DNA of 64,000 bases from an uncultured Methanosarcinales archaeon (GTDB lineage Archaea > Nanobdellota > Nanobdellia > Woesearchaeales > JACPBV01), in NCBI GenBank assembly GCA_964492935.1, contig CAZBLF010000002.1, positions 1-64,000 on the forward strand. Direction: 5' to 3'. A program made the translations under genes and the position numbers. The stretch's first letter is position 1. Each line of letters opens with the position of its first letter. This document shows, in pieces, positions 42,194 to 62,185 of the stretch. The notes under the pieces were generated by a model, which worked only from the letters and a program-made list of their open reading frames with translations, ran no database searches and was not told where the DNA came from.

Positions 42194-42228
42194 TTTTATA
42201 AATAGCATACTCATTCTCAAATCGTTAT

Positions 42229-42325
42229 GGGCCCGTAGCTCAGCCTGGTTAGACAGATGGAAAATCTGGACCAAAGCGATCGCCTCTTAAGCGATAGGCC
42301 GCGAGTTCGAATCCCGCCGGGCCCA
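42229..42325 (+). tRNA. tRNA-Lys(CTT) with a 22-nt intron in the D-arm
   Basis: After removing 42253-42274: GGGCCCG TA GCTC AGCCTGGTTA GAGC G ATCGC CT CTT AA GCGAT AGGCC GCGAG TTCGAAT CCCGC CGGGCCC A; TATA TTTATAAA upstream. Confidence 0.92.
42253..42274 (+). other. Non-canonical BHB tRNA intron (position about 22/23)
   Basis: GGTT/GACC 4-bp helix, AG^A and AA^A bulges, CAGAT/ATCTG inner stem. Confidence 0.88.
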
Positions 42326-43027
42326 TTTTATTTTTTCAAGATGTTTAGAATTACTTGAACCGATACGCTCCATCCACGTTTGTAGGTTCTTCCTCCCATT
42401 TACACAAAGGTAATTTGTTACATAGTCATTTCCCGTTACGCAATGAGTTTCCTTAATATCTAAATAGGTATTAGCCTTAATCCCTAGGACAGAGAGTGCT
42501 TTCTGACAATCAACAATGAGCTCTCTGCTACACATTTTGGCTTGGATAACAGGATATTTTTCAACTTTTTTGAAGTTGATAGAAAAGTCAGTATCAAACA
42601 ATCCTCTGAGGAAATGCCCGAGGTATTCTTGCTTATTCCAAAAAAGCGATGGAATCCTAATGGCGGATTTTCTATTCATAGGGAGGCCAATAATCTGTTT
42701 ATAGAACTGCACCATTCCCTTAGAACATATCTTCAATCTGAGTTCAGATTTGTTAGTTCCAACAAAGTAATGGGGAATGTCAAGGTTAAAGAGGTCCTTC
42801 TTTAATTTTTTTACATAATTCAATATGTAGTCTTTGTCCGTCTTCGCATCCCCAGAAACCATAATCTGGTATTCTTTTCGATCTGAGGAAAGGTACTCCC
42901 CAATATGTCCATCTCCAACCATAATTCCTATGTCTTCAGCAAGCGATTGAGACATCTCAGAGGGCAATCGAAGTCCTCGTTTGATATCTTGTTTACTTAA
43001 CTCAATTTCAGATGTGTTTAATCTCAT
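42287..43027 (-). CDS. Free-standing two-motif LAGLIDADG homing endonuclease
   Basis: LAEDIGIMVGDG and HFLRGLFDTDF motifs; last 13 codons are antisense to the tRNA-Lys 3' half. Confidence 0.85.
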   Translation of the reverse strand: MRLNTSEIELSKQDIKRGLRLPSEMSQSLAEDIGIMVGDGHIGEYLSSDRKEYQIMVSGDAKTDKDYILNYVKKLKKDLFNLDIPHYFVGTNKSELRLKICSKGMVQFYKQIIGLPMNRKSAIRIPSLFWNKQEYLGHFLRGLFDTDFSINFKKVEKYPVIQAKMCSRELIVDCQKALSVLGIKANTYLDIKETHCVTGNDYVTNYLCVNGRKNLQTWMERIGSSNSKHLEKIKWARRDSNSRPIA

Positions 43028-43171
43028 AATAATCACTCAAATTTTTGCATATATATGACTTTTGCAAAATAGAGTGCGTTGAGATTCGTGCAAATCTGAG
43101 TGAGTAACAAAATGGCAAACTTCGAAAGTCCTTATCCATACCTTTTTATATTCATTCTCCAATAGAATTTC

Positions 43172-52871: not shown

Positions 52872-53948
52872 ATGTACGCAGTTCTAGCCCTCAAAGACGG
52901 AACTATTTTTGAAGGCAAAGGCTTCGGTGCTATTAAAGAAACCGCCGGCGAAGTAGTCTTCAACACCTCCCTCGTCGGCTATGAAGAGTCACTTACCGAC
53001 CCCTCTTACAAAGGCCAGCTCCTAACACTAACCTATCCGTTAGTAGGAAATTACGGCGTAAGAAAAGAACATTTCGAATCAGACAAAATCCAGGTGCAAG
53101 GATTTATCGTACGCGAGTTCCAGGAACACCACGCCCATAAAGACGCAACCAAAACCATTCACGAATTTCTAAAGGAACACAATATTCCAGGCATCTCAGA
53201 TATCGACACCCGTATGCTTACAATCAAAATCAGAGAGCACGGAGTCATCAATGGTTGCATAAAAACCAGCGACAAACCCATAGACACCGCAGCATTAGTA
53301 AAAAAAGCAAAAGAGCTAGATGACTACGGAGAAAAGAATCTCCTACCAGAAGTTTCTGTTCGCGCCCCCGAGTTCATCGATGCAAAAGGAGAAAAAACAA
53401 TCGCCATGATCGACACCGGAGTTAAACTTTCAATCATCAGAAATTTCACGAAAAGAAAAATTAACGTTTGGAGATTTCCCTACAACACTACAGCAAATGA
53501 AATAAGAGAAAAGAACGTACAAGGACTCTTCATCGCCAACGGCCCAGGCAATCCAGAACAAGCAACAGAAGCAATCGAGGCAGTAAAACAACTAAAGGAA
53601 GAACTCCCCATCACCGGAATCTGCCTAGGAAATCAGATAGTTGCTTTAGCATTAGGCGGAAAAACCTACAAATTAAAGTTCGGCCACCGTGGAACAAATC
53701 AACCGGTAAAGAATATCAAAGAAAACAAAGTCTACATAACGAGCCAGAACCACGGATTCGCCGTAGACAAAGAATCACTACGCAACACAGACTTAGAAGT
53801 CTCTTATATCAATCTCAACGATGGCAGCGTAGAAGGAATGCAACATAAATCTCTACCCATCCAAACCGTCCAGATGCACCCCGAAGCGAATCCCGGACCG
53901 CAGGATACAAACGGATTTTTTGATGACATAGTGAGGAATCTAAAATGA
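52872..53948 (+). CDS. carA: Carbamoyl-phosphate synthase small subunit
   Basis: GEVVFNT, LTDPSY, NGPGNP, GICLG, FGHRG, SQNHG, HPEA. Confidence 0.97.
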   Translation: MYAVLALKDGTIFEGKGFGAIKETAGEVVFNTSLVGYEESLTDPSYKGQLLTLTYPLVGNYGVRKEHFESDKIQVQGFIVREFQEHHAHKDATKTIHEFLKEHNIPGISDIDTRMLTIKIREHGVINGCIKTSDKPIDTAALVKKAKELDDYGEKNLLPEVSVRAPEFIDAKGEKTIAMIDTGVKLSIIRNFTKRKINVWRFPYNTTANEIREKNVQGLFIANGPGNPEQATEAIEAVKQLKEELPITGICLGNQIVALALGGKTYKLKFGHRGTNQPVKNIKENKVYITSQNHGFAVDKESLRNTDLEVSYINLNDGSVEGMQHKSLPIQTVQMHPEANPGPQDTNGFFDDIVRNLK

Positions 53949-55230
53949 CCCAAGCGATGCCCAATAACAACACTCTTCATCAAGCTAACAACAGTTTTAA
54001 GAACTTCAATATTCCAATAATAGGCAATCTTATGAATAATGAACTTAAACCAAATGAATCTGAGATGAAAGAAATACATTTTTGGGAGCTTCCAGACACA
54101 GTCAGATTGAGATTAAATCTTGAATCTTTACATCATCTATTCAAATCCTCTGATCCAGTGAGTACAGCGGAGAGGTTGGGGATATCGAAATCATATCTAA
54201 ACCATTTGAAGAATGGCAGGCACGCAATAAAGCCCTCTCAACTACTAATCCTTACGAGGCTTTTTGAGAAAGACCCCTTAGAAGTAGAGAAGCAAATAAT
54301 TTCGATGAACTCAACTCGAGGAGGGCAAGCAAGATGCACGTTACCAATCGGGCAAATGAAGAAATTGCCTCGCTGATAGGCCATTACTATGGAGATGGAA
54401 GCATCATTACAAAAAAGCCCCAGTTCAAATTTTGCAATTTTGATAAGGTCTCTCTAAACGAAGTGAAATTGTTAGTAGCAAAGCAATTCGAGTCAACACC
54501 CATTAATGTAACTGAGACTACAGTTACTTATTCCACAATTATCGGAGAGATACTCCTTCTATTTGGTGCACAGCGAGGAAGTAAACTTAAGCTAAAAAAT
54601 GATGTCCCTACCTGGATCACAAACGGAAGCGATGGTGTGAAAAGCAGGTTTGTGAGAGCGTTGTTTGACGACGACGGATCAGTTTCTTCTTCCGGGAACA
54701 ATAAGAACATTAATTTCCACCAAATAGTCTTCGATGAGTACAATCAGTACTCTATAAGATTCTTAAAATCCGTGGTCAAGATACTAGAAGGATTTGAGAT
54801 AATTACTCATGGACCTTACTTATCCAGAAAATACCAGATTAGCCAAAAGGAAAGGAATGTAAATTTCTTAATTATCTCGGACTGGAAGAGTCTGGAAAAT
54901 TATAAGAGGAAAGTAGATTTTTTTCACTCAAAGAAAAAGAAAAGAATAATTGATGTATTATCAAGAAAAAAGACACTGGGAAAACACGAAAGAAATCTCT
55001 TATACAAAAAGATTATCCACTTGTTCCATCCTGAAGAAGAACCATTATCAACGGCATTCATTTCCGAAAAATTGGACATCTCCACAAGAGCAGCCCTCAA
55101 AAGGTTGAAGAATCTTCAAAGCAACAAAAAAGTGACCTTCGAAGGAAGAGTCCGAAACCGATCATTTTTATGGAAACTAAATGGAGGTGAAACCAAATAC
55201 CCAAAAGACAAGATATCAAAAAAATCTTAG
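53945..55230 (+). pseudogene. Frameshifted HTH plus LAGLIDADG homing endonuclease (ORFs 53945-54376 and 54334-55230)
   Basis: HTH (AERLGISKSYLNHLKNG); frame change near 54350 joins TLPI to ANEEIASLIGHYYGDG; second motif RFVRALFDDDG; C-terminal wHTH. Confidence 0.75.
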
Positions 55231-58200
55231 TGATTGGTTCAGGCCCAATTCAAATCGGACAAGCCGCTGAATATCCTTAATAGGAATCAGAGTCGACTAC
55301 TCCGGTACGCAAGCCTGCAAAGCACTAAGGGAGGAAGGCTATAAAGTTGTTTTAGTAAATAGCAATCCAGCCACAATCATGACCGATGCCGACATGGCAG
55401 ACGCAGTCTACATAGAACCCCTAACCGTAGAGATCGTAGAAAAAATAATCATAAAGGAAAAGCCAGATGGCATTCTGCCAACGATGGGCGGCCAAACCGG
55501 ATTAAATCTAGCAGTACAGCTACACCAACAAGGAATTCTCAAAAAACACCACGTAGAACCACTCGGAACATCAATAGAATCCATCGAGCAAGGAGAAGAC
55601 AGAGAACTGTTCAAAAAACTCTGCATAGATATTGGAGAACCTATTCCCGAATCAAAAACCGTAGAAAATCTCAAACAAGCAAAAGCATTCGAGAAAGAAT
55701 GCGGACTCCCGATAGTCATCCGTCCAGCCTACACCCTCGGAGGCACTGGAGGAGGAATAGCACATACACCAGAAGAATTCGAAACCATTACCCAACACGG
55801 AATCAATCTCAGCCCCATCAAGCAAGTCTTATTAGAAAAAGCAATCCTTGGCACCGAGGGCTGGGGAGAATTCGAGTTTGAAGTGATGCGCGATAAGAAC
55901 GACAACTGCATCATCATCTGTCCCATGGAAAACCTCGACGCCATGGGCATCCACACCGGCGAGTCCATTGTAACGGCTCCAACGCAAACCCTCAACGATA
56001 AAGAATTCCAAACTCTAAGAACATCCGCAATCAAAGTAATCAGAGCACTAAAAGTAGAGGGCGGCTGCAACATCCAGTTCTCATTCAACTACCATACTGG
56101 AGAATACGTCATCATCGAAGTCAATCCGCGTGTCTCACGATCATCAGCCCTAGCATCTAAAGCAACCGGCTACCCCATAGCAAGAATCGCTACAAAAATT
56201 GCAATAGGAATGACACTAGATGAAATTCCTAACGATGTAACCAAAGAAACCAAAGCATGCTTCGAGCCCACAATCGACTACACCGTAGTCAAAATTCCGA
56301 GATGGCCCTTCGACAAATTCCCTACCGTAGACAAGCGCATCGGCACCCAGATGAAATCCACCGGAGAGACCATGGCGATCGGCAGAACGTTCGAAGAAGC
56401 CCTCCAAAAAGCAATCAGATCGCTAGAAGTAGACAGATTCGGATTAGGCCACGACCCCAAAGACCGCATCTGCGAAAACAAAGAGGAAATCATTCAAAAT
56501 CTCAAAGTTCCAACACATAAAAGACTCATGTATATCCGAGATGCGTTTGCACTCGGCATGAACGAAGAAGAAGTAAAAGCACTCACCGGCATCAACACCT
56601 GGTTCCTCACCAAAATAAAAAACATCTACGAGCACGCCAACACCATCACCAAAGAAAAAGAATCAATAAGAGAAGCAAAAAGAAAAGGATTTTCCGACGT
56701 CCAAATAGCAAAAATCACAAACACAAGTGAAAAAGAAATCAGAACGTTAAGAAAAGAACACAACATCCTCCCTACCTACAAAATGGTAGACACGTGTGCC
56801 GCAGAGTTCGAAGCAAAAACGCCCTATCTCTATGGAACCTACGAGCAAGAAGATGAATCCAAACCCACCAACAAAAAGAAAGTAATCATCATTGGTGGAG
56901 GCCCCATCCGAATCGGCCAAGGAATAGAATTCGATTATTGTTGTGTCCACAGCGTCTTTGCCTTACAAGAAGAAGGCTACGAAGCCATCATTGTAAACAA
57001 TAACCCAGAAACCGTTTCAACCGACTTCGATACCTCTGATAAACTCTACTTCGAACCCTTAATTTTCGAAGACGTCATGAATATCATCGAACGAGAGCAA
57101 CCGCATGGAGTAATCCTACAATTCGGTGGACAAACGCCCATTAACATGGCGATGCGCCTACAAGAAGAGGGAGTCAAAATACTGGGAACACAACCCGGGA
57201 GCATCGACACCGCAGAAAATAGAGATAAGTTCGGCGCAATCCTAGAAACATTAAAGATTCCCAGTGCCCCCTGGGGAACCGCGAGATCAATAAATGAAGC
57301 CTTACTCAAAGCAGGCAACATCGGCTATCCCGTACTCGTAAGACCTTCCTACGTTCTCGGAGGTAGAGCAATGCAAATCGTAACGAGCGATGAAGAATTA
57401 AAGGCATATATGGAGGAAGCCGTAAAGATTTCCCCCGACCATCCCGTTCTCGTAGACAAGTACCTAGCAAACGCACTAGAACTTGATGTAGATGCATTGT
57501 GCGATGGCAAGCAAGTCTATGTCGCAGCCATCATGGAGCACATCGAGGAAGCCGGCGTACACTCCGGAGATTCAGCCTGCGTCATCCCTCCACAAAGCCT
57601 TAAACCAGAAGTCAAACAAAAAGTCATCGACTACACCAAGAAACTAGCTCTAGCTCTCAAGACAATTGGATTAATCAATATCCAATATGCAGTAAAGGAT
57701 GACGTCGTCTATATTCTAGAAGCAAATCCTCGTTCATCAAGAACCATCCCCTATGTCAGCAAATCCATAGGAAAGCCCATGGCAAAAATTGCAACCCAGG
57801 TACTTCTTGGAAAAACCCTAGACGAACTAAATCTAGGAGACTATACCGAACCCACCTTCACCACCGTCAAGCAAGTCGTCTTTCCCTTTCTTAAATTACA
57901 GGGAGTTGATCCCATACTAGGACCAGAAATGAAATCCACCGGAGAGGTCATGGGAATAGATACCTCCTTCGGCAAAGCCCTCTTCAAAGGCTTCGAAGCA
58001 GCCCAGATGAAACTGCCGAAGCAAGGCAACATCATGGTTGCAATCGGAAGAGATGACCACAAAGAACAAGCCGTGGACTGGGCAAAAAGCCTAATCGAGA
58101 TGGGCTTCAAGCTCTTTTGCACACCCGGAACGCGAGACGTCTTCATCAAGCACAACATCCCTTCAACCACCGTACCCAAAATCAGAGAGGACCCCATGAT

Positions 58201-58420
58201 ACTTGACATGATGAAGCGCAACCAAATTCATATGGTGATCAACCTCCATCGCGGCTCCCATCCAAGAACCGACAGCTACACCATAAGACGAAAGTGCATA
58301 GAATTAAACATCCCTCTACTAACACGAATGCCCACCGCAAAAGCCGCAATAAAAGCAATCACTTCGATGAAAGACCAAGAGTATGATGTAAAGTCGCTGC
58401 AAGCCTTTTACGCAGACTGA
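55197..58420 (+). CDS. carB: Carbamoyl-phosphate synthase large subunit, join(55197..55272,55293..58420), about 1067 aa, ATA start
   Basis: Exon 1 (M)[24 protein letters not shown] after GGAGGTGA; exon 2 [16 protein letters not shown] runs into ORF 55379-58420. Confidence 0.93.
55273..55292 (+). other. Candidate 20-nt BHB/BHL-type mRNA intron in carB
   Basis: ATCCTTAATAGGAATCAGAG; CTGA/TCAG central helix, AT^A and AG^T bulges; removal gives GAA TTC GAC (E-F-D). Confidence 0.8.
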
Positions 58421-58611: not shown

Positions 58612-59679
58612 ATGAAAAAAGAAAAAAACGAAAACAAAAGTGTCCTTTACGATGGGCTTTCTCGCCGAGAAATTATTGGCGCTTGGAAGAACACAATGGA
58701 CACCAGAAAGAAGACTGGACTTGGACAGAGAGAGCTAGCGAGGCTTCTACTAACTGAGCACCAACTAGAGATCTCAGAAAGCACTATATCGGGATGGATT
58801 CATAAGCATGTTGTTCCCTTTGCGCAAGAGAAAACACAATTCAAACCAAAACCTATTCCTCCAAAAAAGGTGCTCGAAAAGCTGTATATCCACAATCAGA
58901 AAAGTGCAAGCACGATCGCAAAGAAGTTCCATGTGTCTACAATTATTGTTATCAATTGGCTGAAAAAATACGGGGTCCGAGTAAGATCTCACACAGAATC
59001 CATGAATACAAGTATTATCCAGAGCGTATTAAGGGATCAAAAAGTGACTAGGCCCACCAGAGAGTATGGTAAGCTCTCTCCCGAAAAGGCATATATTCTT
59101 GGAGTACTCTGCGGCGATGGATACATCGATCATAAATTCATGAAGCTCGAGATTAGAAGAGACCTTGATTTTATGAACGAATTCATTAGATGTGTTGAGG
59201 AGGTATACGGTTTACGATACAAGCACTATTACTACAAGCACAGAAATAGCTATATTGTGAACGTGAACGCTCAAATTATTTGCAAAGATTTACTCAACCA
59301 CGACACCTTCCGAACTCGAACATGGAGAGTCCCTAAAGCAATATCTGAATCAAAGAGCAAGGGAGTGGTGAGCCATTTCCTAAGAGCACTCTTTGACAGC
59401 GATGGTTCTTCTAGTGGATCAACCGTAAACATGACGCTTGCGAATGGAAGTGCATTAAGAGAGGTATCGTCGCTTCTTACAAAACTAAACATTTCCAATA
59501 GGGTGAAAACTCGAAGCCCTTACAGCACACTAACGATATCACATAAGGACAACCTAAGAAAATTCATAGAAGAAATCGGATTCACCATTCAAAGAAAAAA
59601 TGATAGAACCAAAAAATACATACAACACGGACGAAGAGCTGTACGGTCTTTTGCACCCCATAGTCAAAAAGTGGTTTAA
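58612..59679 (+). CDS. Free-standing LAGLIDADG homing endonuclease with N-terminal HTH domains
   Basis: KAYILGVLCGDG and HFLRALFDSDG; two HTH-like segments; overlaps the lhr start by 80 nt. Confidence 0.87.
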   Translation: MKKEKNENKSVLYDGLSRREIIGAWKNTMDTRKKTGLGQRELARLLLTEHQLEISESTISGWIHKHVVPFAQEKTQFKPKPIPPKKVLEKLYIHNQKSASTIAKKFHVSTIIVINWLKKYGVRVRSHTESMNTSIIQSVLRDQKVTRPTREYGKLSPEKAYILGVLCGDGYIDHKFMKLEIRRDLDFMNEFIRCVEEVYGLRYKHYYYKHRNSYIVNVNAQIICKDLLNHDTFRTRTWRVPKAISESKSKGVVSHFLRALFDSDGSSSGSTVNMTLANGSALREVSSLLTKLNISNRVKTRSPYSTLTISHKDNLRKFIEEIGFTIQRKNDRTKKYIQHGRRAVRSFAPHSQKVV

Positions 59680-62185
59680 GAGGAAGTTTAAGACGTTCGC
59701 GAAAGCCCAGAAATGCGCGATAATGCCAATCCATAATCGCGAGAACGTGTTAGTTTCATCTCCAACCGGATCCGGCAAAACGTTAACAGCATTCATGGCC
59801 ATTCTCAACGAATTAGTAGACTCCTCGGAAAAGAACATTCTTGAGGATAGAGTTTATGCTGTTTACATAAGTCCGCTTAAGGCACTTTCTTCAGACATCC
59901 ACCACAATCTCATCGAACCCCTAGAAGAGATGGAAAAATCCGCAAAGAAAGAGCTCAATATCAGAGTTGGTGTACGAACCGGCGACACCACCCCCTACCA
60001 ACGATCAAAGATGCTCAAGAACCCGCCCCACATTCTCATCACAACGCCAGAATCCCTAGCTATCTTAATCTGCTCCCCAAAATTCCAGGAACATCTCAAA
60101 AAAGTAGAGTGGTTTATCTTAGATGAAGCCCACGCCATCGCAGAAAACAAGCGAGGAGTCCACGCATCTATCGTCATGGAACAACTCTCCCAACTCTCTC
60201 CCCACATGTGTCGCATCGGATTATCCGCAACCATCTCACCACTCGAAAAGATAGCACATTTCCTTGTCGGTAACGATAAGGGTAAACCAAGACCTTGCAA
60301 ATTAGTAGATGTGCAATACCTCAAAGAAATCGACCTCAAAGTCATGTCACCCGTCAAAGATCTCATTGGCGTCGAGCACACCTTAATGCACAACTCCATG
60401 TACAAGTTAATTAACAAATTAGTACAAGACCACAAGACAACCCTAATCTTCACCAACACCCGAGCTGCAACCGAACGGGTAGTCCACAACCTCAAAGATA
60501 AATATCCGAAAAACTACGACGAAAACATAGGAGCACATCACGGTTCTCTAAGTAAAGAACTCAGATTAGATATCGAAGAAAGATTACGAGCAGGAAAAGT
60601 AAAGGTAGTTGTTTGTTCAACCTCTTTAGAATTAGGAATCGACATCGGTTCTATTGACTTAGTTATCTGCCTAGGCTCTCCAAAATCAGTTGCGCGAGCA
60701 TTACAACGAGTAGGACGATCCGGTCACCGACTAACAGCAAAAACCAAGGGAAGAATAATTGTACTAAACCGAGACGACCTCATCGAATGTTCCGTCTTAG
60801 TAAAAGATGCAATCGAAAAGAAGATCGACCGCATCCACATCCCGAATAACTGTCTCGACGTCCTAGCCCAGCAAATCTACGCAATAGCCATCCAGGATAA
60901 AATCCAAGTAAATGACCTTTTCAACATGATTACGAGATCATACTGCTACCGAGATCTAGACCGAAAAGACTTCCAGGACGTTATAGATTACTTAGCAGGC
61001 AAGTTCGTCTCCTTAGAAGACCGCTACATCTACGCCAAGATCTGGTACGACGAAGACACCGGCATGATTGGTAGAAAGGGAAAGATGGCAAGAGTCATCT
61101 ACATGACCAACATCGGAACCATCCCAGAATCAATTGCTGTACGCGTTAAAATCGGCGATCAACCCGTAGGTACCATTGAAGAAGCCTTTCTAGAAAAGCT
61201 CAGACCAGGAGACGTCTTCCTATTAGGTGGAAACACCTACCAGTTCAAGTTTGCGCGCGGGATGGTCGCCCAAGTCTCTGCGTCCGTCAACCGACCACCC
61301 AATGTTCCGGCATGGTTCTCCGAAATGTTGCCATTAAGCTATGATCTAGCAAGCGACATCGGCAAGTTCAGAAGACTTATTAGCCAACAATTCGATGCAA
61401 ATAAGAAAAAGCCAGAAATTCTAGAATGGATTCACGAGTATCTCTATGTAGATCAAAAAGCGGCTGAATCAATTTACAGTTACTTCGACGAACAACACAA
61501 GTTCGCAAAAATCCCCTCAGATTCCAGAATCATTGTCGAACACTACATCGATGGAACCGGAAAACGATTTTCCGTCTTCCATTCCCTCTTTGGTCGCAGG
61601 GTAAACGACTGCCTATCAAGAGCAGTAGCCTTCGCCATCGGCAGAACCCAACACAAAGACGTAGAGATCGGCATCAGCGACAACGGCTTCTATATCATCG
61701 CTCCCGGAAAAGTAAATGTGCTGAAAGCCTTTAAACTCCTAAAAAGCAAAGACCTCAGAAAAGTAATGAATATGGCCATTGACAAAACAGAAGTTCTGAA
61801 ACGAAGATTCAGACACTGCGCAGCACGTTCACTCATGATCTTAAGAAACTACAAAGGCAGAAGAAAGTACGTTGGCAGACAACAAGTAAGTTCAATGATC
61901 CTATTAAGCGCTGTAAGAAGAATCTCCCAACACTTCTCCATCCTCAAAGAAGCCAGAAGAGAAGTCCTAGAAGACTTAATGGATATCGACAATGCCCAAA
62001 TCATCGTAGAAAAAATAGAGAAGAAAGGCATCAAGATAGAGGAGTTCACAACGGAAATACCAAGCCCCTTCGCATTAAATCTAGTAACACAAGGCAAGAC
62101 CGACATCATGAAGATCGAAGACAAAACAGAATTCTTACGAAGAATGCACAATGAGATTCTGGCAAAGATTAGTTTGAAGAAGTGA
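59600..62185 (+). CDS. lhr: Lhr-family ATP-dependent helicase
   Basis: PTGSGKT, SPLKAL, RTGDT, TTPES, DEAH, LSAT, HHGSL, LELGID, QRVGRSGH. Confidence 0.93.
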   Translation: MIEPKNTYNTDEELYGLLHPIVKKWFKRKFKTFAKAQKCAIMPIHNRENVLVSSPTGSGKTLTAFMAILNELVDSSEKNILEDRVYAVYISPLKALSSDIHHNLIEPLEEMEKSAKKELNIRVGVRTGDTTPYQRSKMLKNPPHILITTPESLAILICSPKFQEHLKKVEWFILDEAHAIAENKRGVHASIVMEQLSQLSPHMCRIGLSATISPLEKIAHFLVGNDKGKPRPCKLVDVQYLKEIDLKVMSPVKDLIGVEHTLMHNSMYKLINKLVQDHKTTLIFTNTRAATERVVHNLKDKYPKNYDENIGAHHGSLSKELRLDIEERLRAGKVKVVVCSTSLELGIDIGSIDLVICLGSPKSVARALQRVGRSGHRLTAKTKGRIIVLNRDDLIECSVLVKDAIEKKIDRIHIPNNCLDVLAQQIYAIAIQDKIQVNDLFNMITRSYCYRDLDRKDFQDVIDYLAGKFVSLEDRYIYAKIWYDEDTGMIGRKGKMARVIYMTNIGTIPESIAVRVKIGDQPVGTIEEAFLEKLRPGDVFLLGGNTYQFKFARGMVAQVSASVNRPPNVPAWFSEMLPLSYDLASDIGKFRRLISQQFDANKKKPEILEWIHEYLYVDQKAAESIYSYFDEQHKFAKIPSDSRIIVEHYIDGTGKRFSVFHSLFGRRVNDCLSRAVAFAIGRTQHKDVEIGISDNGFYIIAPGKVNVLKAFKLLKSKDLRKVMNMAIDKTEVLKRRFRHCAARSLMILRNYKGRRKYVGRQQVSSMILLSAVRRISQHFSILKEARREVLEDLMDIDNAQIIVEKIEKKGIKIEEFTTEIPSPFALNLVTQGKTDIMKIEDKTEFLRRMHNEILAKISLKK

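Follow-up and report, generated by a model that had tools for sequence, protein, structure and literature searches.

The DNA considered here is a 64,000-nt stretch (hereafter, the window) of contig CAZBLF010000002.1 from GenBank assembly GCA_964492935.1, listed as an uncultured Methanosarcinales archaeon and placed by GTDB in the Woesearchaeales; it is contig C2 of the genome under study, G000, which amounts to 1.15 Mb in 57 contigs and is 84.8% complete. Our subject is carB, the gene for carbamoyl-phosphate synthase, which lies downstream of carA at 55197..58420 and is interrupted close to its 5′ end; this and all other features of the carA-carB locus described below are on the forward strand. 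The conserved CarB N-terminus is read at 55200-55271 and is followed by Tyr, Pro and two stop codons, the first being the TAA at 55278-55280, after which CarB sequence picks up in another frame that has an Asp codon at 55295 and remains open as far as 58420. What separates the two parts is a 20-nt insert (55273..55292) containing an in-frame TAA and TAG. Exon 1 (55197..55272) comprises an ATA start, 24 more codons and the first base of a Phe codon that the insert splits; exon 2 (55293..58420) begins with the remaining two bases of that codon (55293-55294), runs to the stop, carries the Pfam domains CPSase_L_D2, D1, D3 and MGS, and has 91% amino acid identity to its counterpart in G001, a congener of G000. 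An original prediction, made from the letters of this DNA, had placed the interruption at these coordinates, and sequence and translation bear it out. We consider it likely that the insert represents an intron of the bulge-helix-bulge (BHB) type within the carB pre-mRNA, spliced by the tRNA-splicing proteins EndA and RtcB.

A canonical BHB consists of two 3-nt bulges on opposite strands with a 4-bp helix between them, and EndA cuts after the second nucleotide of each bulge, as follows from the position of canonical tRNA introns within the motif. Folding of the carB RNA with RNAfold (55255-55310 and 55255-55305) gives an outer helix that is formed entirely by the exons, with 55256..55266 in exon 1 pairing with 55294-55304 as 4+2+2 bp (55256-55259/55301-55304, 55262-55263/55297-55298 and 55265-55266/55294-55295); the exon 1 strand is invariant in four of four alleles. 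Within it, the minimum-energy fold has a central 4-bp helix between CUGA in the exon (55267..55270) and UCAG in the intron (55287..55290), a 5′ cut-site loop, AUA (55271..55273), an inner hairpin with the stem UCCU/AGGA and the loop UAAU (55274..55285), an unpaired A at 55286, and a 3-nt 3′ bulge, AGU (55291..55293). The predicted cuts lie at 55272/55273, a boundary that is set by insert-free alleles, and at 55292/55293. The motif had been described as relaxed, which is correct for the minimum-energy fold, but a canonical two-bulge form is also possible: pairing of U55274 with A55286 produces canonical 3-nt bulges at both sites, all four alleles keep this U-A pair, and the two-bulge form sits 1.4-4.3 kcal/mol above the minimum across the four.

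Excision of 55273-55292 according to the cut rule yields a 1067-codon frame that reads E-F-D-Y-S-G across the junction, as in intact relatives; this agrees with the original prediction of a regenerated E-F-D and a protein of about 1067 residues, and insert-free alleles share the boundaries. In G001, for example, carB is intact and has GAA TTT GAC at the insertion site. We propose that a single alpha4-like EndA would cut at 55272/55273 and 55292/55293, and that RtcB would join the exons of carB. Since ribosomes on unspliced RNA would be stopped at 55278 after about 27 residues, only the spliced message would give the 1067-residue CarB.

The insert is in the DNA, as the original prediction supposed. 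The stretch is present in 20 DNA runs from 18 studies, four of which we aligned over 53700-56000, and contigs of three runs carry the insert with zero differences. Two of these contigs (23.9 kb and 12.5 kb) span the whole of 53700-56000 and possibly derive from the source sample; the third (run X9, record 21; 476 nt, covering 54875-55350) crosses the insert and is not flagged as an assembly source. A further contig, L092, comes from a metagenome and shows no difference from the window. The 281-nt contig of run X3, with 8 differences in 68 nt, belongs to a relative that has diverged, and its alignment begins exactly at 55293; the sequence before that point ends in the last bases of an exon 1, so that this is an insert-free allele with the junction as predicted.

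To place the insert among related genes, we drew on 41 related genomes including G000, which gave 12 carB loci with an identity of at least 70%. Two of the 12 are interrupted, at the same site: those of G000 and of G011, a relative from another genus. Pattern searches returned two of 401 genomes of the order, one of 251 in a sample of the phylum, and two of 14 in the family, while a search of genome_contigs gave 31 loci, one of them a true hit (G011's own contig) and the other 30 chance matches, including an Iainarchaeum contig. The search patterns require particular exon codons and insert lengths, so that other forms of insert would escape them. A metagenome scan recovered three loci, all of them carB: L091, L092, which is the G000 allele, and L093. 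Together these make four alleles with an insert at one site, of 20 nt in G000, 23 nt in G011, 20 nt in L091 (with one loop difference) and 21 nt in L093.

The four alleles share one architecture: in every case the minimum-energy fold contains the 4-bp helix as well as the 3-nt 3′ bulge. The original prediction had suggested aligning carB from relatives for covarying helices; the inner helix exists in three versions, all of which pair, namely UCCU/AGGA in G000 and L091, AAGC/GCUU in G011, and, with a U.U mismatch, U-A, U.U, G-C and C-G in L093. By contrast with these diverged inner helices, the exon flanks at 55254-55305 are identical in all four alleles except at the unpaired position 55300. 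Synonymous sites between the alleles are saturated (pairwise pS 0.83-0.92), and yet the codon third positions that are paired or lie in a bulge are invariant in nine of nine cases, as against two of 11 other third positions (Fisher p = 3.3e-4). Even the five third positions left free by the pattern used to find L091 and L093 are all invariant. The invariant exon block could result from selection on RNA structure or from co-conversion during transfer; that the inner helices have diverged and the paired exon sites have not favours selection on structure.

We asked how often the motif occurs by chance, using a test with fixed boundaries that requires a 4-bp helix with at most one G.U pair, an outer helix of at least 2 bp, and an inner helix of at least 3 bp with 0-2 spare nucleotides. 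Of 2,000,000 positions drawn at random from the genome 634 passed, as did 206 of 200,000 shuffles of the 20 nt. Among distinct indels of at least 10 nt between G000 and G001, one of 32 passed, and that one is the carB insert; this control covered 20 of about 90 G001 contigs and two carB loci, or about 188 kb of aligned blocks, within which no second BHB-type insert was found. A 36-nt hairpin insert at C8:27846 of G000 was considered as a BHB and rejected, being an in-frame coding indel without the motif. Elsewhere in G000, no further copy of the carB insert was found within four mismatches, apart from two unconvincing matches with four mismatches. A naive genome-wide BHB scan with an open-frame filter left 9019 hits from 68,439 raw motifs and is useless without homology; its 40-codon filter would itself have missed carB.

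A gene whose reading frame is broken may simply be dead or dying, with the insert never removed and the products of carbamoyl phosphate obtained from a host. Besides the broken frame, the ATA start and the frameshift in the adjoining endonuclease gene could be read as signs of decay, and DPANN archaea are often without biosynthetic genes; no CarB match was found in 20 of 40 relatives searched. Nonetheless, the joined carB evolves as a functional gene does. Compared with G001, non-synonymous divergence (dN) is 0.061 and synonymous divergence (dS) 1.149, giving a dN/dS of 0.053 over 1066 codons, and at this distance there is no other stop or frameshift, nor any further defect, in the 1067 codons; the relaxed selection that the original prediction associated with a pseudogene is absent. 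Over 16 codons of exon 1, by our own count on the alignment rows, there are 11 synonymous changes from G001 and no amino acid change, which indicates that exon 1 is translated in its own frame and makes sense only if it is joined to exon 2. The insert-bearing carB is otherwise intact also in G011 (1072 codons) and in L093 (697 codons within the locus). No second carB was found in G000, and the genome has a gene of the OTCase (carbamoyltransferase) family, a consumer of carbamoyl phosphate. Decay would, moreover, explain neither why the geometry is exactly that of a BHB nor why the paired sites are frozen, and we regard it as unlikely.

Splicing would require EndA and RtcB, both of which G000 encodes. 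EndA (contig C25, 11176-11832) has its N- and C-terminal domains, with hits to PF01974 and PF02778, in one 219-aa frame and is closest to the Nanoarchaeum equitans catalytic subunit (3iey_A, E = 1.2e-37) and the Methanocaldococcus jannaschii homotetramer (1a79, E = 1.1e-32); RtcB scores 575.7 bits and is uninterrupted. The rnhB gene is likewise uninterrupted, and neither a second EndA subunit nor an archaeal metK was found in G000, which is 84.8% complete. ARAGORN predicts introns in many G000 tRNA genes, and a strict BHB template fits five of 14 tRNA introns (8-200 nt) within 6 nt of the ARAGORN ends; the poor fit may reflect relaxed motifs or imprecise predictions.

It is very unlikely that EndA cuts the carB RNA and the halves are left unjoined, the structure serving as a switch for decay or down-regulation or as some other RNA element. 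Such a switch would account for the conservation of the structure, and there is a precedent in yeast TSEN, for which the excerpted text of a review describes endonuclease-initiated mRNA decay. However, a switch has no need to restore the codon and the frame exactly, and failure to join the exons would leave the cell with no CarB, contrary to the purifying selection on both exons; the RtcB that would do the joining is, as noted, present. Still less probable, to the point of being far-fetched, is that the ribosome skips the insert by bypassing or frameshifting, as it does across the 50-nt gap of phage T4 gene 60. A free-standing endonuclease gene beside a short insert with stops and a hairpin does resemble the case of T4 MobA and gene 60. 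Here, though, the Phe codon is split, so that E-F-D cannot arise by a hop from one codon to a matching one, and the sole GAA in the vicinity (55284-55286) is in the wrong frame; a single +1 or -1 shift cannot cross a 20-nt gap; and the conserved helix between the exons is something that a BHB needs and bypassing does not. An assembly or sequencing artefact, for which we found no point in favour, has a negligible probability, because the insert recurs, with zero differences, in contigs of runs that belong to different studies, L092 is identical, and three other alleles have inserts at the same site.

Several observations weigh against an intron spliced by EndA and RtcB. Among 23 runs, no RNA run was found to contain the stretch, the one presumed to be RNA having next to none of its words, and we infer the splicing of carB from DNA. 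At the 5′ site, the minimum-energy fold lacks a clean bulge; it has a 3x1 internal loop there, and G011 and L093 have an even larger one. Folding-energy z-scores are modest (-1.0 to -2.2), so that the case rests on geometry and comparison and not on stability. The pattern used to find L091 and L093 fixed two of the nine invariant third positions and limited two to Y, and the sample of alleles is small, consisting of four that are related. Lastly, only one EndA gene is present, and it is of the homotetramer-like type that has been described as strict: the excerpted part of one article ascribes strict BHB recognition to alpha4 EndA, although the same part reports that DPANN alpha4 enzymes with an extra L3 loop accompany many disrupted tRNA genes (PMC5829648). 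Against these points stand the boundaries, the pairing, the frozen third positions, the selection on carB, and the presence of EndA and RtcB, which together give in silico support to the original prediction of pre-mRNA splicing by the tRNA machinery.

The cbf5 pre-mRNA intron was reportedly the subject of work by Watanabe in 2002 and by Yoshinari in 2006. In the excerpted text of a later study of Crenarchaeota, it lies in coding sequence, measures 16-44 bp, and has been shown to be cut by EndA and ligated (Yokobori, 2009; PMC2738675). The carB insert is like it in being a short, BHB-type element in coding sequence with a relaxed motif, too short to encode a nuclease and patchily distributed among relatives. 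It differs in its host gene and lineage (a metabolic enzyme in a DPANN archaeon, as against an RNA-modification enzyme in Crenarchaeota), in being adjoined by an endonuclease gene, and in that splicing is proven for cbf5 and inferred for carB; furthermore, cbf5 splicing has been linked to a heterotetramer EndA, whereas the EndA of G000 looks like a single-gene homotetramer type. The original prediction was right to name cbf5 as the established archaeal mRNA intron but missed a second documented mRNA substrate, a 46-nt BHB intron in the 5′ untranslated region (UTR) of HVO_1309 in Haloferax volcanii, which is supported, in the excerpt of that article, by circular-RNA sequencing and in vitro cleavage (Schwarz et al., 2020; PMC7714728). 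This too is an mRNA BHB motif for the splicing endonuclease, but it is a leader intron and interrupts no reading frame. Full-text searches and excerpts of four articles turned up two archaeal mRNA substrates, cbf5 coding sequence and the HVO_1309 5′ UTR (PMC2738675; PMC7714728; PMC10485636; PMC13149111), and the excerpt of a 2023 review expects that there are further archaeal mRNA introns. We found no published carB mini-intron by full-text search, a search that subscription journals and supplements lie outside. The carB insert probably brings an intron of a known kind to a host gene and a lineage that are both new for it, and a link to a homing endonuclease is plausible. If so, archaeal mRNA splicing extends to a central metabolic gene and to DPANN archaea, an organism with a single homotetramer-like EndA can splice mRNA, and automatic annotation will mistake genes of this sort for broken or split ones; the endonuclease gene next to carB, in turn, offers a testable mechanism for the arrival and spread of such introns.

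Neither that endonuclease gene nor the ATA start of carB figured in the original prediction. The gene occupies 1.25 kb between carA and carB; G001 lacks this stretch, and in it the ATG of carB and the stop of carA overlap. carA itself (52872..53948) encodes the 358-aa glutamine amidotransferase subunit, with the Pfam domains CPSase_sm_chain and GATase. The ATG of the endonuclease gene overlaps the TGA stop of carA (ATGA), replacing the carA/carB overlap, and the stretch encodes a protein with a helix-turn-helix (HTH) domain, a double LAGLIDADG region and a second HTH domain. In G000 the gene is split by a frameshift into an N-terminal part of 143 aa with the first HTH (53945..54376; Pfam HTH_3, 24.7 bits with a cut-off of 23) and a C-terminal part of 298 aa with two LAGLIDADG motifs and the C-terminal HTH (54334..55230); LAGLIDADG_3 scores 26.5 bits (cut-off 22.5), and HTH_11 falls below its cut-off. 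The open reading frame (ORF) of the relatives is continuous in the alignment, and no indel variant was seen at the frameshift in the four runs aligned: L093 has a single 447-aa frame, and G011 a single 363-aa frame without the C-terminal domain. The endonuclease gene shares its 3′ end with the initial 34 nt of carB (55197-55230), read in a different frame, and stops 42 nt before the insert, a spacing within the range of co-conversion; the same arrangement is found in G011 and L093.

A tblastn search with the L093 protein matched only G000 (61% identical in the C-terminal part), G011 and L093 among 17 loci. Of 14 carB 5′ regions, three have both elements (G000, G011 and L093), L091 has only the insert, G007 has a 210-nt degenerate remnant ORF with similar ends and no insert, and nine have neither, or seven if G005 and G013, which are flagged as unpublished and are included in our locus counts, are left aside; both of these lack the insert and the endonuclease gene. 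In none of these 14 regions, which are few and related, does an apparently whole endonuclease gene occur where the insert is missing. The carB tree joins G000 to G001 as its sister (100/100), and a grouping of the three alleles that have both insert and endonuclease gene is rejected by the approximately unbiased (AU) test (p = 6.8e-58). Because the insert alleles do not form one clade, the two elements have been either transferred or repeatedly lost. Whether the insert and the HTH-LAGLIDADG gene, which encodes a predicted endonuclease, constitute one selfish cassette is, in our judgement, evenly balanced. On the negative side, L091 has the insert with a NUDIX hydrolase gene (382-960, -; 59.6 bits) in the place of the endonuclease gene, and of the copies that accompany an insert, that of G000 is frameshifted and that of G011 lacks the C-terminal domain.

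Given such a cassette, carB alleles free of the insert would be cut by the endonuclease at the very conserved E-F-D-Y site or close to it; in the course of repair the broken allele would acquire the insert and, in many cases, the endonuclease gene too; and the insert would destroy the target site and so protect its carrier. The insert would be harmless because, as we propose, the host splices it out. An insert-only allele, a remnant without an insert, and the lack of any apparently whole endonuclease gene without an insert among the 14 regions fit a target that lies at the insertion site or close by, and since the endonuclease gene of G000 is already frameshifted, the cassette there looks to be past its active phase. 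As a lead only, we note that the joined exons contain a short near-palindrome whose centre is one base away from the insertion site.

The start of carB is also unusual at the loci that have both elements. In G000 it reads GGAGGTGA-N6-ATA, with the Shine-Dalgarno-like GGAGGTGA at 55183..55190, 6 nt ahead of the start, and the TGA in the motif provides an upstream in-frame stop; we take the motif to be complementary to the 3′ end of 16S rRNA. The junction in G011 and L093 has the same motif with ATC as the start, and the remnant junction of G007 has a weaker form, GGGTGA-N6-ATT, whereas the nine loci with neither element, as well as L091, have an ATG start and no GGAGGTGA motif. We tentatively suggest, with a confidence that falls a little short of even, that this is an archaeal form of collaborative homing, in which an HTH-LAGLIDADG nuclease is paired with a protective BHB mini-intron of 20-23 nt and the ATA, ATC or ATT start is part of the design of the cassette. 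Such a start would give the junction immunity, or would slow translation and leave time for splicing. Collaborative homing of this sort would amount to a working route for introns into archaeal protein-coding genes.

Two other accounts of this region were tried and rejected. The first was that 53945-55199 is a second, large BHB intron whose removal gives carB an AUG from the carA/carB junction; co-folding of the ends and a check of the registers by hand showed no BHB. The N-termini of the endonuclease ORFs (M-x-x-x-x-P-N/K-N) are only faintly like the carB start, M-P-K-R. The second was that a run of seven A's (55218-55224), 4 nt before the endonuclease stop, is a -1 slippery sequence leading toward the carB frame; the run is not conserved in G011 or L093, and probably represents Lys-Lys codons of carB.

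There are precedents for a homing nuclease encoded apart from the intron it mobilises. Collaborative or trans homing is described in phages, in the excerpted text of one article, for F-CphI by the cyanophage psbA intron and for T4 MobE with the nrdB intron (PMC2790892). Like the carB locus, these systems have a free-standing nuclease gene beside an insert without a nuclease. They also show removal at the RNA level, which is probable for carB, and a joint distribution of the two, which the few carB loci suggest. They differ in that they involve self-splicing group I introns in phage genomes, whereas carB has a candidate host-spliced BHB intron, in a cellular archaeon, together with a LAGLIDADG and HTH protein. 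Among endonucleases of the LAGLIDADG family, I-DmoI is an example that belongs to an rRNA intron. LAGLIDADG endonuclease genes lie inside archaeal rRNA BHB introns, according to the excerpt of one article (PMC2738675). The nuclease family and the kind of intron are the same as those at carB, but the nuclease gene is inside the intron there and outside it, 42 nt upstream, at carB.

LAGLIDADG genes are widespread in G000, with 18 LAGLIDADG_3 matches at about 15 places. The best match of the genome (57.3 bits) is in a helicase gene with a 1035-aa frame (locus L079, 978-4085; contig C3, -), which probably holds an intein. The cbf5 gene of G000 lies in an 834-aa frame with an internal LAGLIDADG region (locus L087, 10784-13288; C11:22783-25287, +) and has no BHB intron of the cbf5 type; its insertion looks like an intein instead. 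The 23S rRNA gene spans 4418 nt, against the 2987 positions of the model (locus L082, 2971-7388; C18, -), and has at least one LAGLIDADG ORF inside it, at C18:7487-8080, and probably a second at C18:8815-9309, which suggests classical endonuclease-bearing rRNA introns. Five LAGLIDADG ORFs have a tRNA gene at a distance of about 50-550 nt, and introns are predicted in four of these tRNA genes. In the window, an ORF of 249 aa (42287-43036, -) abuts a tRNA-Gln gene (42228-42326) that ARAGORN predicts in intron mode only, and similar ORFs abut the genes for tRNA-Asn (C1), tRNA-Lys (C6), tRNA-Leu (C16), tRNA-Met (C11) and 5S rRNA (C9).

The remaining matches are between protein genes, among them metG, the gene of a ychF-like GTPase and that of an lhr-like helicase. 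Downstream of carB is a second ORF that combines HTH and LAGLIDADG (355 aa; 58612-59679, +; LAGLIDADG_3, 53.1 bits); its last 80 nt coincide with the beginning of the lhr-like helicase gene (59600-62185), which looks complete and in which no insert was seen. Lastly, a 25-nt motif has eight copies in the genome with at most two mismatches (C6:5696, C9:31061, C16:10158(-), C36:5344(-), C3:9872, C27:9834, C42:6092(-) and C57:163). None is at the carB cassette, and four are just upstream of free-standing LAGLIDADG ORFs; the motif could be a promoter, a target site or the end of an element.

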